Notes under the pieces: generated by a model | Told to the model about the DNA's origin: nothing | The model's input: the letters and a program-made list of their open reading frames with translations, nothing else | Database searches by the model: none | Part shown: piece after piece, positions 1,512-6,366 of the stretch | Position numbering within the stretch: position 1 is the stretch's first letter | Layout: every line of letters starts with the position of its first letter | From: a virus | Taxonomy: Duplodnaviria > Heunggongvirae > Uroviricota > Caudoviricetes | Direction: 5' to 3' (one strand) | Length of the DNA: 6,469 bases | Virus record (IMG/VR): IMGVR_UViG_2648501150_000029 | Translations under genes and position numbers: made by a program

Positions 1512-2084
1512 ATGTTTTGCGAAGAAAAAGTAGCTCAAATGGCTGCATACCTACTTCTTAAGCGAGGTGGGCGCATGGCATATCTGAAATTGATGAAGTT
1601 GCTCTATCTGTCTAACCGCCAGTCGATTTTGAAGCATGGCAGGATGATCGGCGAAGATAGCCTTTACTCTATGAAATTTGGACCAGTCATGTCGAATACG
1701 CTGAACTTGATTCGCGGTAAGGCTGAAGGCATTGGTGACTACTGGTACAACTTGATAGAGACGAACGGGCATAATGTATCGTTGCGTTCAGATCCGAGGG
1801 AAATGGATGCAGACGAGGTCTTTGATGAATTGAGTCGTGCAGATATCCGGATTTTAGATGAAATCTATTCTCGGTATGGGCATATGAACCGATTTGATCT
1901 CGCAAATATGACGCATTTAGAAAGCGTTTGTCCAGAGTGGCACGATCCTGGCAATTCTCGTAAGCCTATAGACCTGAAAGAAATGCTGATCAGTGAGGGT
2001 AAAAGCGAGGATGAGGCTAATCGCATAATTGGCAAAATGGAAGAATCTCAGAAACTTAAGGAATTTTCTTTGCAATTATCATGA
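1512..2084 (+). CDS. Panacea-domain (DUF4065, GepA/SocA-like) protein; putative antitoxin or sensor component
   Basis: ATG at 1512 with GAGG 8 nt upstream. The N-terminal region (VAQMAAYLLLKRGGRMAYLKLMKLLYLSNRQSILKHGRMIGEDSLYSMKFGPVMSNTLNLIRG) has the K-L-x-K-L-L-Y-L ... F-G-P-V pattern I associate with Panacea/DUF4065 phage-associated proteins. Low GC compared with the flanks. Stop TGA 2082-2084 overlaps the next start. Confidence 0.6.
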   Translation: MFCEEKVAQMAAYLLLKRGGRMAYLKLMKLLYLSNRQSILKHGRMIGEDSLYSMKFGPVMSNTLNLIRGKAEGIGDYWYNLIETNGHNVSLRSDPREMDADEVFDELSRADIRILDEIYSRYGHMNRFDLANMTHLESVCPEWHDPGNSRKPIDLKEMLISEGKSEDEANRIIGKMEESQKLKEFSLQLS

Positions 2085-2500
2085 CGGATTATCAGCCATA
2101 CAGGAAAGGAACTGTGCTTGCCCCAACTGGGCCATGCAATCATCTTCATGTGATTTGTAATGATCCTGTTTATTACCCCGTTAACGATTGTTATTGTGTT
2201 TTAGTTGTTAATATTTCTAGTATCAAGGATGGTGTCCCCCACGATCCGTCTTGCGTCTTGAATTCTGGTGATCATCGCTTTATCAAGCATCCAAGTTATG
2301 TTGTTTACGCTGAAGCTATAATTTGGCGAGTGGATAACATGGTTAGAAAGCAGCGATCGGGTGAGATTTCTGTTCATGATGATATGCCAGAAGCTACATT
2401 CAATAGAATTCTGGACGGTTTTGATATCTCTGATGAAGTTACGCCAAAGAACCTTAAATTTAAAAATAAATATTGCGTATCATCTATTGATGATGAGTAA
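2081..2500 (+). CDS. Hypothetical 139-aa protein translationally coupled to the Panacea gene; candidate toxin/effector partner
   Basis: ATG 2081-2083 overlaps the upstream TGA (ATGA, 4-nt overlap) and has no independent SD, which implies coupling. Stop TAA 2498-2500. No family recognised with confidence; there is a weak by-eye resemblance to Kid/PemK/MazF-type toxins (C-x-C-V-L-V-V-N...SYVVYAEAIIWRVDNMVRKQRSGEIS), unverified. Confidence 0.45.
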   Translation: MTDYQPYRKGTVLAPTGPCNHLHVICNDPVYYPVNDCYCVLVVNISSIKDGVPHDPSCVLNSGDHRFIKHPSYVVYAEAIIWRVDNMVRKQRSGEISVHDDMPEATFNRILDGFDISDEVTPKNLKFKNKYCVSSIDDE

Positions 2501-2539
2501 ACAACAGGAATTGTTTCGGTATAACTTCAGGAGTTTTCT

Positions 2540-2713
2540 ATGGAAGATCAAAAAGCAACCAAGCCACAGGTTAAGTTCGACACAATGAAAGCATTCGCAG
2601 GTATGGGTGCTGCTGTTGAAGTTCTGATGAAGGCTGCTCCTAATGCGTTCACTCACGCTACTGTCTCTGGTAAAGAGCAGCAGGGTAAGCTTCGTCGTCG
2701 CAAAGCAGCATGA
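2540..2713 (+). CDS. Small hypothetical protein, 57 aa (MEDQKATKPQVKFDTMKAFAGMGAAVEVLMKAAPNAFTHATVSGKEQQGKLRRRKAA)
   Basis: Not in the ORF track (under 60 aa). ATG at 2540 preceded by AGGAG (2529-2533) at 6 nt spacing; stop TGA 2711-2713; followed within 20 nt by an intrinsic terminator. Basic C-terminal tail. No family recognised. Confidence 0.45.
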   Translation: MEDQKATKPQVKFDTMKAFAGMGAAVEVLMKAAPNAFTHATVSGKEQQGKLRRRKAA

Positions 2714-2732
2714 TCATAGCTGGTGCTTTTTG

Positions 2733-2758
2733 AAAACCCGCCTTTAGGCGGGTTTTTT
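2733..2758. terminator. Bidirectional rho-independent terminator
   Basis: aaaaCCCGCC-ttta-GGCGGGtttttt: a 6-bp GC stem (2737-2742 / 2747-2752) flanked by an A-run and a T-run, so it ends in a U-tract on either strand. It lies between the plus-strand small gene (stop 2713) and the convergent minus-strand excisionase-like gene (stop 2761-2763). Confidence 0.7.
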
Positions 2759-3042: not shown

Positions 3043-3078
3043 AATTTTCTCCATCAAAACCGGCTGCACCCGGGAAAA

Positions 3079-3651
3079 TCATAATTCTGTGCTGGTGGCA
3101 GGAATTAATTTCTGCCAGATAGCGGAAACATATTTTGCCTGATGACGGGCATCAGCCAGGGCGTTGTGCCGTTCGCCATCGAAAGGCATGTCCATTTTGG
3201 GGTCGAATCCGATGGAACGCCCAAGCGTAACGATCGTGCGTACATCGTGGTCATTCCAGTATGCCCACGGGCAGATTTGTCCTGCTCGCTCATAAGCTCC
3301 ACGTAAAATTACGTTGTCGAAGGTGGCTCCGTTACCCCAGACTTTTAAATATTTCGTATTGTCTGCGTGCCGGTTAATGAAATGATTTAGTTCTGAGAGA
3401 GCATCGCTGATCGACAAAGTATCATCAATACAGATTGCAGCTCGTGCTTCAGGGCTTTGTTTCAACCACCACAGGATGGTATCGCCGTCAGGTGTAGCTC
3501 CTTGCCCCATAGCACTTTCCAGGCTAACAACCGTATAGAATTCTTGTCCGATGTCTCCGGTTTCTGGAGTGAAGAACACCGCGCCAATGGAAACGATCGG
3601 TGCATCCTTATTTTTCCCCATCGTCTCAAGGTCGATCATTAAGTTGTTCAT
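3079..3651 (-). CDS. DEDDh-family (DnaQ-like) 3'-5' exonuclease, prophage-encoded, 190 aa
   Basis: ATG at 3651-3649 with AGAGGTG SD 5 nt upstream; it overlaps the upstream stop (TGATG). N-terminal Exo I motif MIDLETMG (D-x-E) and C-terminal H-x-A-x-x-D-A (ERHNALADARH), diagnostic of DEDDh exonucleases. By position this is the full-length counterpart of the ypdJ exonuclease fragment I recall in K-12 CPS-53. Confidence 0.75.
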   Translation of the reverse strand: MNNLMIDLETMGKNKDAPIVSIGAVFFTPETGDIGQEFYTVVSLESAMGQGATPDGDTILWWLKQSPEARAAICIDDTLSISDALSELNHFINRHADNTKYLKVWGNGATFDNVILRGAYERAGQICPWAYWNDHDVRTIVTLGRSIGFDPKMDMPFDGERHNALADARHQAKYVSAIWQKLIPATSTEL

Positions 3652-4460: not shown

Positions 4461-4822
4461 TATGCTCCAGCCTCCGGTGCTTTTGGCATTACTGCCCAGT
4501 GAGTGATGTTGACGTTTTCAAGGTCCCCGACCTGAAATGTCCACTGCCATTCTCCGGTTTCTTTTTGCCCCCATGTATACCAGAGAGAACGCCAGCCAAT
4601 CAGCCAGCCTTCTCCATTAGCATCAAATAACAGAACACTTTCATTCGCTGGCGGCAGTTCAGCTGACACTGGTATTACTTTGTTTTCCAGTGCTGCACAT
4701 TTAGCTTCAAGCGCATCAAATTTACGCACCAGGTATTCAGCATCCGTTTCATTCACTTTCAGATCTCGCGGTACACATTTCCCGCGAAGAAATCCTTCCA
4801 TTTCGAAAACATTCATGCGCAT
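4460..4822 (-). CDS. yfdS: YfdS-like prophage protein, 120 aa
   Basis: ATG at 4822-4820 with GGAG 8 nt upstream; overlaps the yfdR stop by 10 nt. A second in-frame ATG at 4816 forms an ATGA overlap with that stop. Assignment rests on the yfdQ-yfdR-yfdS order and the matching 120-aa length recalled for K-12; no motif recognised. Confidence 0.6.
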   Translation of the reverse strand: MRMNVFEMEGFLRGKCVPRDLKVNETDAEYLVRKFDALEAKCAALENKVIPVSAELPPANESVLLFDANGEGWLIGWRSLWYTWGQKETGEWQWTFQVGDLENVNITHWAVMPKAPEAGA

Positions 4823-5349
4823 TTGCGTAACTCCGATAATTCGTTAAAGCGTTCCATAAACATCCCGTAGGCATGGCCTGGAGCCAGTGGAATCACGTTG
4901 AACATCTCTGTTGCCGGGATACCTTCCAGTACAGGCCAGAAAGAGCCATCATCAAGCCCGAGATCGCGGCGTTCGGTTGCCAGCATGATGAGATCGGCAT
5001 ATTTCACGGGCGTACTCATAACCGGTGGTAACCCGTATTTCTCACGGATTACGGCGTCTATTTTTTCTTCCATCCGTTTATAGTCAGGAAGAAGGCGTTT
5101 CAGTGGTGCGGGAATGTCCTGGCAATACGCTTCTGTTGCATCATGCATTAACGCTTCAAAAGCAAATTCCTGCGGCACCAGCTGGCTGCAAAGAACCGCA
5201 TGTTGGGCGACGCTGTAGAAGTGCGAAAGATGACCGGCAAAGCGACAGATATTTGAAAGGGAAACCGCGATATCGTTAATATCGATGTCGTCTTTATTTA
5301 TCCTGTCATAATAAAAATGCTTCCCAGAAAAAGTTTTGATAAATGACAT
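4813..5349 (-). CDS. yfdR: HD-domain phosphohydrolase (5'-deoxynucleotidase-like), YfdR, 178 aa
   Basis: Best start is ATG 5349-5347 (MSFIKTFSGKHFYYD...) with GGAG 6 nt upstream; the ORF-track start at 5376 is a GTG without SD. HD-domain signature visible: ...H-x-x-x-H... (GHLSHFYSVAQH) and ALMHDATEAY (the H-D dyad). The 178-aa length matches K-12 YfdR as recalled. Confidence 0.8.
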   Translation of the reverse strand: MSFIKTFSGKHFYYDRINKDDIDINDIAVSLSNICRFAGHLSHFYSVAQHAVLCSQLVPQEFAFEALMHDATEAYCQDIPAPLKRLLPDYKRMEEKIDAVIREKYGLPPVMSTPVKYADLIMLATERRDLGLDDGSFWPVLEGIPATEMFNVIPLAPGHAYGMFMERFNELSELRKCA

Positions 5350-5442
5350 TTTGTTCTCCACGTATATGCGCTGCACCGCGCTGAATTCTGGTAAAAAGAA
5401 TCCCTCACCATCCGGCGATTATTGAGTAAATTACGTTTCCAT

Positions 5443-5464
5443 AAATGCCCCCGCAGGGGCATTT
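5443..5464. other. Perfect 22-bp palindrome / stable hairpin between yfdQ and yfdR
   Basis: aaatgcccc-cgca-ggggcattt: a 9-bp perfect inverted repeat with a 4-nt loop. It lies 13 nt downstream of the yfdQ stop and about 85 nt upstream of the yfdR start on the minus-strand transcript. No clean U-tract follows on either strand, so it is not a canonical intrinsic terminator. Confidence 0.5.
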
Positions 5465-5476
5465 GCAGTAATGAAA

Positions 5477-6301
5477 TCAGGCGGTGAAAGTACCAATAAA
5501 GGTTTCTACTTTGCTGTCCTTGAATTTCTCAACAAGCAGATCACGAAATTCGTTAGCCATTTCTTCCTGCACCGCCTCCAGCTGAATAATGCGCAGAACC
5601 AGTACAGGACGATCGCCAGTGATAATGCTGAGGCGTAATTTAAACGGACGTTCTTTCAGACCTTCAAACGGAACGCATTTAAATTCAAATGCCACTGGCA
5701 TAATGTCTTTGGTCTTCGCTTCGACAGACTCCATCAGGGAGCGTTTGCCGCTGAAGTCATTGTCTTCAAAATCAGCGGTCTGGTTCGCTTCAATTGTGAT
5801 TTTACGGATCGCCGCAGCCGCTTTGGTTGCCTGAATGGCGTCACCATTAGCATCAAAGCCCACAAGGTAGTCTGCCCAGTCTTCAATCCATTCTGCCAGT
5901 GACTTCTGGGAGTTACGCTCGCCATTAACAGACAACAGAGCAGAGAACGGTGCTGTCTTTTTCAGTTTGAGAGTGGCGGTGTTATCTGCGTGACCTGGTT
6001 CATCAATAGTACCCAGGTTAAGCACACTGACGGCTCGCATATTATCGGCATCGATAAAGCAGCGGGTGCCTTCATCTGCAAGATCTTTAGAATAACGGGT
6101 AAAGTCATCGATGCTGGCAGTGGAAAGTGCACCACGGAAACGGAAACGATTTAAATTAAATTTTTCCAGATCATGAATGCGGAAATTCTCAGGCAATGCC
6201 ACAGCATCGGCACCAATCTTACTGATAATTTCATTAACACCCTGAGCAGAAATAAGGGCATGGATTTGATTAATTGCGGTTGAGTCTAAGTTCTGAGACA
6301 T
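5477..6301 (-). CDS. yfdQ: DUF2303-family prophage protein YfdQ, 274 aa
   Basis: ATG at 6301-6299 with GAGG 8 nt upstream; stop TGA 5479-5477. Product [70 protein letters not shown]... matches in length and N-terminus what I recall of E. coli CPS-53 YfdQ. Identity is from recall. Confidence 0.75.
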
Positions 6302-6366
6302 AATAAGTCCTCACTATATTAAGATATTCAGTGATGAGATAAATAATCAGTTAATTAAGAACGATA

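Follow-up and report, generated by a model that had tools for sequence, protein, structure and literature searches.

A conserved mRNA hairpin between yfdQ and yfdR in the early-left operon of enterobacterial prophages

The yfdQ-yfdR spacer and its inverted repeat

What is the function of an inverted repeat that lies between two genes of an otherwise tightly packed prophage operon, and does it act as DNA or as RNA? The window, i.e. the whole stretch of 6,469 nt analysed here, matches a lambdoid prophage of E. coli ACN002 with 100% identity. This prophage of 44 kb is inserted in dusA, as follows from an integrase which abuts the intact dusA at one end and a dusA fragment at the other end. The operon under study corresponds to the polycistronic early-left mRNA of the SfV/CPS-53-like type; all its genes are located on the minus strand, and the same operon is carried by CPS-53 of E. 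coli K-12 and by phage SfV. It starts with yfdP, which extends beyond the window edge, followed by yfdQ (5477-6301, minus strand; DUF2303), yfdR (4813-5349, minus strand; HD-type 5'-deoxynucleotidase), a DUF551 protein, a hypothetical protein, an Rv2179c-like 3'-5' exonuclease and a PrtN-type excisionase. An e14-like cI/cro (immunity) region is found about 1.5 kb upstream of yfdP. The product of the gene downstream of the repeat, YfdR, binds DnaA (PMC4776307). A promoter scan revealed no sigma-70-like promoter on the minus strand of the yfdQ-yfdR spacer, and no RNA-binding domain was recognised in the neighbouring proteins.

The spacer (5350-5476, minus strand) measures 127 nt, in good agreement with the about 125 nt of a preliminary description, which had also pictured every other gene junction of the operon as overlapping or within about 36 nt. 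For junctions that lie fully inside the window this is the case, since three of them overlap (by 10, 1 and 1 nt) and one has a gap of 36 nt, but yfdP and yfdQ are separated by 65 nt (6302-6366). On the plus strand the repeat consists of AAATGCCCC (5443-5451), CGCA (5452-5455) and GGGGCATTT (5456-5464). The mRNA-sense minus strand accordingly reads AAAUGCCCC-UGCG-GGGGCAUUU, followed by AUGGAAACGUAAUUU, and as RNA forms a helix of 9 bp (5443-5464, minus strand; denoted apical helix) with five G-C pairs, a UGCG tetraloop and a folding energy of -15.8 kcal/mol, which begins 12 nt past the UGA of yfdQ. The designation as a perfect 22-bp palindrome is appropriate for the 9-bp arms around their 4-nt spacer, but not in the strict sense, since the loop is not self-complementary. 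Perfect inverted repeats with arms of at least 9 bp and loops of 3-8 nt are expected by chance at 0.22 per dinucleotide-shuffled window and 0.004 per 127 nt; the window harbors two of this class, namely the repeat at 5443-5464 and a true terminator at 2732-2757. The absence of a proper U-tract noted earlier is confirmed by the tail AUUUAUGG and by a consensus terminator scan, which requires 5 T in 8 and calls the terminator at 2732-2757 but not this site.

The terminator at 2732-2757 (GAAAACCCGCCTTTAGGCGGGTTTTT, 11-bp arms) is a strong bidirectional intrinsic terminator and is situated between the convergent excisionase gene and a gene pair on the plus strand. A Panacea-domain protein and a hypothetical protein after it lie beside the dusA fragment at the prophage end (1700-2736, plus strand, and about 1443-1547) and are possibly a toxin-antitoxin pair. 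Another near-perfect 22-bp palindrome, TGGCAGAAATTAATTCCTGCCA, is located at 3096-3117, within the exonuclease gene at its 3' end and about 55 nt before the excisionase gene starts, and could be a DNA site controlling excision.

An extended hairpin maintained in the mRNA-sense strand

The repeat as first described is only the top of a hairpin of about 50 nt, which itself is part of a conserved three-hairpin spacer. This extended imperfect hairpin, HP1ext (5429-5478, minus strand), was detected in a repeat search by its 22-nt arms with 73% complementarity and in the folds of its variants. Its outer helix GAUU/AAUU takes in the last two bases of the yfdQ stop codon UGA; this helix begins with the second of the three stop-codon bases (UAAUUGC ... 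GCGUAAUU). Inward from the outer helix follow the short helices CUG/UGG and (C)AUU/AA(C)G and then the apical helix, while two isolated C-G pairs and small non-canonical steps link the outer to the inner helices. Altogether the HP1ext model comprises 19 pairs over 23 steps. In other genera the same element is a helix of 20-23 bp with a few non-canonical pairs, and folds of 20 bp are obtained in Phytobacter/Kosakonia as well as in the E. coli variant L005. The E. coli variant present in the window has a lower helix which is weakened by C.A and A.C mismatches and is thus weaker than in most relatives, and its minimum-energy fold picks a different outer pairing.

The 3' strand of the outer helix is located 8-22 nt past the apical stem. 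Hence, the outer helix forms only in RNA that has been read through, and the form under selection is the read-through transcript. As judged from this geometry, the hairpin is most likely functional in transcripts continuing into yfdR. The most conserved bases are those at the hairpin base (UAAUUGCUC.GC.UUAA / UUA.UGAAGCGUAAUU) together with the unpaired motifs GGCGAGGGAUUC and GUGCAG, not those of the apical stem and loop.

Of 5,426 complete E. coli genomes, 2,998 (about 55%) carry the spacer at 91-100% identity. They include K-12 with its CPS-53, where the counterpart of the 22-nt hairpin occupies positions 2474869-2474890. The spacer also occurs in 50 phage records, among them SfV, SfIV, Stx2c-converting phages, cdtI and mEp460. 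The hairpin travels with the 3' end of yfdQ, which lies upstream of it in 78 of the 80 hairpin-bearing IMG/VR loci, and yfdR is the usual cistron downstream. Among close relatives the 22 nt are near-invariant. Two different C>U changes occur in the 5' arm, each of which retains, on the mRNA strand alone, a G.U pair; the loop is either UGCG or, in related E. coli prophages, UACG (on the sense strand only), and one variant lacks one G.

In order to reach distant relatives, one genome per species was scanned with the YfdQ protein, yielding 32 loci with 55-75% protein identity in Buttiauxella, Serratia, Symbiopectobacterium, Phytobacter, Kosakonia, Izhakiella, Mixta, Pseudocitrobacter, Erwinia, Citrobacter, Klebsiella, Kluyvera and Enterobacter. 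Prophages of 14 or more genera of enterobacteria share the conserved spacer. In every enterobacterial locus a hairpin is present at the same position after the stop codon, with a new stem sequence but maintained pairing, as exemplified by the paired arms UUAAUUGCCCUG/CGGGGCAAUUAG, UUAAAUCCCCGG/CGGGGAUUUA, AAUAGCCCCCG/CGGGGGUUAUU and AAAUACCCCA/UGGGGUAUUU. Two more scans of viral contigs contributed 81 additional distinct spacers.

Compensatory change was quantified in several alignments. In a MAFFT alignment of 35 distinct variants, which was not fitted to the structure (A4), 95.4% of the cells are standard pairs compared with 85.4% in shuffles, none of 500 shuffles reaching the observed value, and both sides have changed in 12 of the 19 pairs, a number that drops to 0-3 once the pairing partner is shifted 1-3 columns away. 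An alignment of 22 sequences covering the whole spacer with its three hairpins (A1) has 88.8% of its cells paired and 12 compensated pairs; in slid controls the values are 32-45% and 1-4. In the alignment of 98 distinct sequences to a covariance model, the four variable pairs of the apical stem are distributed as AU76/UA21/GC1, UA91/AU7, CG51/GC34/GU6/AU4 and GC52/CG27/UG17/UA2, and base 2 of the stop codon changes in concert with a base that lies 54 columns farther downstream (AU60/GC20/GU17). All these cell counts, in each of the alignments, are drawn from related sequences and hence do not represent independent events. The variety of stems across genera, taken together with the slid controls, makes a chance pattern very unlikely.

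The strand on which the structure is maintained can be read from several observations. G.U cells (178, in 11 pairs) far outnumber A.C cells (36, in 7 pairs). Of 62 variants, 50 fold more stably as the sense strand, the mean energies being -21.9 kcal/mol for the sense and -18.8 kcal/mol for the antisense strand. Finally, a covariance model built from the 22-sequence whole-spacer alignment (R1; a hairpin-only model is denoted R2) finds one element in each of 100 loci, all 100 having sense-strand scores of 94-149 bits, whereas the hairpin on the antisense strand scores about 27 bits. The G.U excess, the stability of the sense fold and the model scores show that the structure is selected in mRNA-sense RNA, not in double-stranded DNA or in an antisense transcript.

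An all-against-all comparison of columns in the 98 variants, which covered alternative and pseudoknot helices, gave no second covarying helix, only clade-linked coincidences. Coding explanations were rejected as well: for an ORF of 54 codons (5298-5462) that starts in the hairpin, or for read-through of the UGA, the substitutions fit paired stems rather than codons, and the frame further downstream is not kept from genus to genus.

Further hairpins of the spacer and their exchange

Downstream of HP1ext the spacer continues with an A/U-rich single-stranded stretch (5419-5428, minus strand) and two shorter hairpins. HP2 (5405-5418, minus strand) has the sequence UCGCC-GGAU-GGUGA, followed by a conserved GGGAUUC; in alignment A3 99.2% of its cells are paired, and one pair varies as GC84/GU11/AU3. 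It is called terminator-like by a simple scan, but only because the tail is U-rich in E. coli, other genera showing GGGAUUCGUGCAACC in this place. HP3 (5368-5381, minus strand; GCGC-GGUGCA-GCGC, -7.6 kcal/mol) ends 19 nt ahead of the yfdR AUG, and the Shine-Dalgarno sequence GGAG of yfdR is located at 5356-5359 (minus strand), within the spacer. The stem of HP3 is variable, with 4-6 bp (5-6 bp in other genera), and closes a conserved hexaloop GUGCAG. Its 42 variants fold alike despite stem changes such as GCGCU/AGCGC, CGCAG/CUGCG, GUGCG/CGCAC and GCGCCA/UGGCGC.

The three hairpins do not always occur together. Serratia-type loci contain HP1ext alone, placed before the Shine-Dalgarno sequence; the loci L008, L098 and L306 keep HP1ext in combination with other downstream genes; and a common deletion type has lost yfdP-yfdQ and the 5' arm of HP1 but retains HP2 and HP3. 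Since HP1ext, HP2 and HP3 separate in nature, they are to be regarded as independent hairpin modules and not as one folded aptamer. For the same reason, a single integrated riboswitch aptamer for yfdR is unlikely. In locus L007, rdgC replaces yfdP-yfdQ and a different long hairpin, also devoid of a U-tract, occupies the same position (2455-2505). This hairpin, AUUGCAGCAAUC ... GAUUGCUGCAAU with an inner CCCAU/AUGGG stem, has 12+5 bp and a folding energy of -25.9 kcal/mol; HP3 and the ribosome-binding site of yfdR are retained.

Hairpins with a (G/U)UGCAG hexaloop that end 18-23 nt ahead of a start codon, and are separated from it by a GGAG-type Shine-Dalgarno sequence, precede four genes of this prophage. 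Besides yfdR, these are xis/PrtN (CCGG-GUGCAG-CCGG, window 3060-3073, minus strand), yfdP (CGACC-UUGCAG-GGUCG) and a KilA-N gene (GGCGG-GUGCAG-CCGCC); in locus L090 such hairpins are located at 6253-6268 (minus strand) and 12910-12925 (plus strand). TGCA-loop hairpins no more than 40 nt upstream of a start codon were counted in 5 of 41 cases, with about 0.9 expected.

The frequent variant without yfdP and yfdQ has its junction within two similar hairpins, that of the yfdP leader and that of the yfdQ-yfdR spacer, leaving GAGAAACUAACC joined to GCCCCUGCGGGGGCAU. Junctions of this deletion type are found in L006 (2440-2520) and L009 (3230-3300), to be compared with L002 (2690-2750) and L001 (8030-8090, minus strand). 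The mosaic prophage L008 breaks about 10 nt past the hairpin, and L126 (6523-6544) carries the same 18-nt hairpin in an unrelated operon. The hairpins also mark recombination junctions in prophage mosaics.

Possible roles in the early-left transcript

Which function would such a hairpin serve? The element is a structured intercistronic mRNA hairpin, that is, it is of a known type, and it has no Rfam family. On the evidence of sequence and predicted folds, we give about even credence to the proposal that it is a post-transcriptional intercistronic processing or stability element. The hairpin would form on the mRNA-sense strand from the yfdQ stop codon onwards, in RNA reading on into yfdR. It might then block 3'-to-5' exonucleases and so, once the A/U-rich spacer immediately beyond it has been cut, protect the yfdP-yfdQ segment; alternatively, the irregular helix of 20-23 bp might itself be the substrate of the double-strand-specific RNase III. 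In either case the two halves of the operon, upstream and downstream of the hairpin, would decay independently, which would set the ratio of their expression. Both the nuclease and any effect on expression, including the control of the ratio between yfdQ and the downstream genes that had been suggested before, are what we infer from the layout.

A processing or stability role is favoured by several features: the layout corresponds to that of RNase III sites and stabiliser hairpins, an A/U-rich stretch follows, the replacement hairpin of L007 stands in the same place, and RNase III sites in E. coli are enriched in intergenic regions within transcripts (PMC6212723). The hairpin is located in exactly such a region, between the yfdQ stop codon and the yfdR Shine-Dalgarno sequence of one transcript. 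Published K-12 data sets bear on the site as follows. Term-seq lists no 3' end for yfdQ or yfdR, the operon being silenced by a Rho-dependent region inside yfdP (PMC7815308); bicyclomycin data place this termination region inside CPS-53 yfdP at NC_000913.3 2473888 (plus strand; PMC7815308, supplementary file 2). Because Rho stops transcription inside yfdP, no transcript ends are on record for the more distal part of the operon in K-12. Likewise, the TERMITe tables have no entry at the site, the cryptic prophage operon of K-12 not being transcribed through it, and a K-12 RNase III data set contains only zero-coverage positions nearby, in the coding sequences of yfdP, yfdR and yfdS (PMC5371410).

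Comparison with known systems supports the assignment on the level of layout. The layout of HP1ext resembles that of other phage elements, all of them long, irregular hairpins that extend over about two helical turns, contain small internal loops, lack a U-tract and are situated between a stop codon and the next Shine-Dalgarno sequence of a polycistronic early phage mRNA. These are the RNase III processing sites, such as the early sites R0.5, R1.1 and R1.3 of T7 and the N-leader and sib sites of lambda. The 1.1 and 1.3 junctions of T7 fold alike, with an upper stem of 10-13 bp, a mismatch and a lower stem. A profile search of the T7 genome with R2 and filters switched off matched no known RNase III site, while the best match of R1 (1421-1504, gene 0.4/0.5 junction) has an E value of 0.3 and is not significant. 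We take this junction to be R0.5; the positions of the T7 sites are reportedly those of Dunn and Studier (1983). A relationship to the T7 sites is therefore unsupported, and the likeness is one of layout, not of family. Stable stem-loops directly after the upstream cistron inside an operon are likewise characteristic of the intercistronic stabilisers that give segmental mRNA decay, namely the malE-malF REP, the Rhodobacter puf and the pap operon elements. Contrary to REP-type elements, the yfdQ-yfdR hairpin is present once per prophage, and its conserved lower stem includes the stop codon. The A/U-rich stretch after the hairpin could be an RNase E site.

Among the other explanations is a weak terminator or pause site. 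The apical stem together with AUUUAU would release some polymerases after yfdQ unless these are modified by phage antitermination. The operon is of the lambdoid early-left type, in which internal terminators are usual, and the hairpin shares with intrinsic terminators a G+C-rich stem (9 bp, -15.8 kcal/mol) with a tetraloop shortly, i.e. 12 nt, after the stop codon. The 8 nt following the G+C part include 4 U in the window and 3-5 U in relatives, the tail AUUUAU(G/U) might allow a degree of termination or pausing, and in the recombinant L306, where the downstream module is replaced, a U5 tail (GGGAUUUUUAAAG) follows the stem. Against this, a U-tract is found in none of 98 variants, the tail score is 2.9 compared with 5.7 for the true terminator at 2732-2757, and the sequence after the full inner helix is UGAAGCGUAA. 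The 5' arm UUAAAU is no A-tract, so that the U residues it pairs with are needed for the stem itself. The site goes uncalled by the consensus terminator scan, and the SfV record annotates two terminators in the operon, none of them here. Moreover, the covarying helix extends 3' of the would-be release point, so that selection maintains an outer helix that exists only in RNA already past the site. The missing U-tract and this restriction to read-through RNA render a simple terminator unlikely, and for any weak terminator, attenuator or pause site we see only a small chance. The attenuator offered as one of three readings in the preliminary description is hence disfavoured, whereas the RNA-level hairpin is borne out by compensatory changes, G.U excess and the outer helix. 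The third of its readings, a DNA operator, implied further, operator-like copies; with up to 3 mismatches, one copy only exists in 49.9 kb. A nut site of N-type antitermination was also rejected. In such a site, close to where the operon begins, a motif resembling boxA, CGCUCUU(U)A, precedes a short boxB hairpin by a few nt; the 127-nt spacer contains no GCTCTT, and it lies about 1.5 kb into the operon, not near its start.

A palindromic operator that binds a dimeric regulator, or a linker for recombination where two modules meet, in both cases without a role for the RNA, is in our opinion very improbable. The two arms show perfect symmetry, mosaic prophages cease to be homologous in or next to the hairpin (H27, H28, L006, L008, L009, L126), and the yfdP-yfdQ deletion junction falls inside two hairpins; such junctions are, however, equally expected if short G+C-rich hairpins merely supply microhomology. 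Copies were searched with 3 mismatches in 13.8 kb and 49.9 kb of the prophage, by exact matches of an 18-mer in IMG/VR and by R1 in 28 long loci. In each case, i.e. in the 44-kb prophage (at 3 mismatches), in every one of 80 viral contigs and in every one of the 28 long loci, a single copy was found, and an operator-like distribution is accordingly rejected. The site is about 1.5 kb away from the cI/cro region and remote from promoters, the sequence of the operator half-site is not conserved, as stems differ between genera with pairing kept, and a G.U bias is not expected from recognition of double-stranded DNA. The single copy, the lack of a promoter at the site and the replacement of the stem with retained pairing thus make a DNA operator unlikely. 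An RNA operator has somewhat more in its favour, albeit being quite improbable too. A phage or host protein would bind the lower stem and the purine-rich internal loop (3' side UGAAGCG), possibly together with HP2/HP3, and control translation of yfdR or autoregulation of yfdQ. Conservation is indeed highest at the hairpin base and in the unpaired motifs rather than in the apical stem and loop, and HP3-type (G/U)UGCAG hairpins stand 18-23 nt before four start codons of the prophage. On the other hand, the modules separate freely (HP1ext alone in Serratia-type loci, HP2/HP3 without the HP1 5' arm in the deletion type), the neighbouring proteins are without a recognised RNA-binding domain, and the internal loop is changed to AUGGAAAC in the E. 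coli clade. A more far-reaching variant is rather unlikely: the 127-nt spacer would represent an undescribed cis-regulatory RNA family in which the recurring HP3 marks a phage-wide post-transcriptional regulon, with an RNA-binding factor or ribonuclease as its reader and HP1ext as a processing signal.

When all Rfam families were searched against the window, the spacer and eight relatives, no match exceeded the threshold. The sole family matching the spacer is STnc100 (RF02076), a prophage-encoded sRNA and thus prophage-borne like the spacer, but the match amounts to 20 bits compared with a gathering score of 47 and is non-significant over the whole window. Searches of the literature on yfdQ, yfdR and DUF2303 found no paper describing the hairpin or the spacer. 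The element is thus very common in E. coli, yet without an Rfam family or a description found in the literature. As a processing or stability element, the hairpin may provide a covariation-supported and genetically tractable case of how expression in the early operon of a temperate phage is partitioned, here between yfdP/yfdQ and the downstream yfdR and xis; if its function were generic mRNA stabilisation only, the finding would be an ordinary one.

Another structured box, GUUGUGGUGAAU ... ACCGGGAGGCACCCGGCACCACAAC, is present in the early-left leader upstream of yfdP (L215, 902-1030, plus strand; L002, 2418-2545, plus strand; L001, about 8250-8365, minus strand). The Buttiauxella version is a partial match to STnc100 of Rfam (36.9 bits, threshold 47), and the ACN002 version has no Rfam match. 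By its position just downstream of the presumed leftward promoter, this leader box recalls the antiterminator put RNA of HK022.
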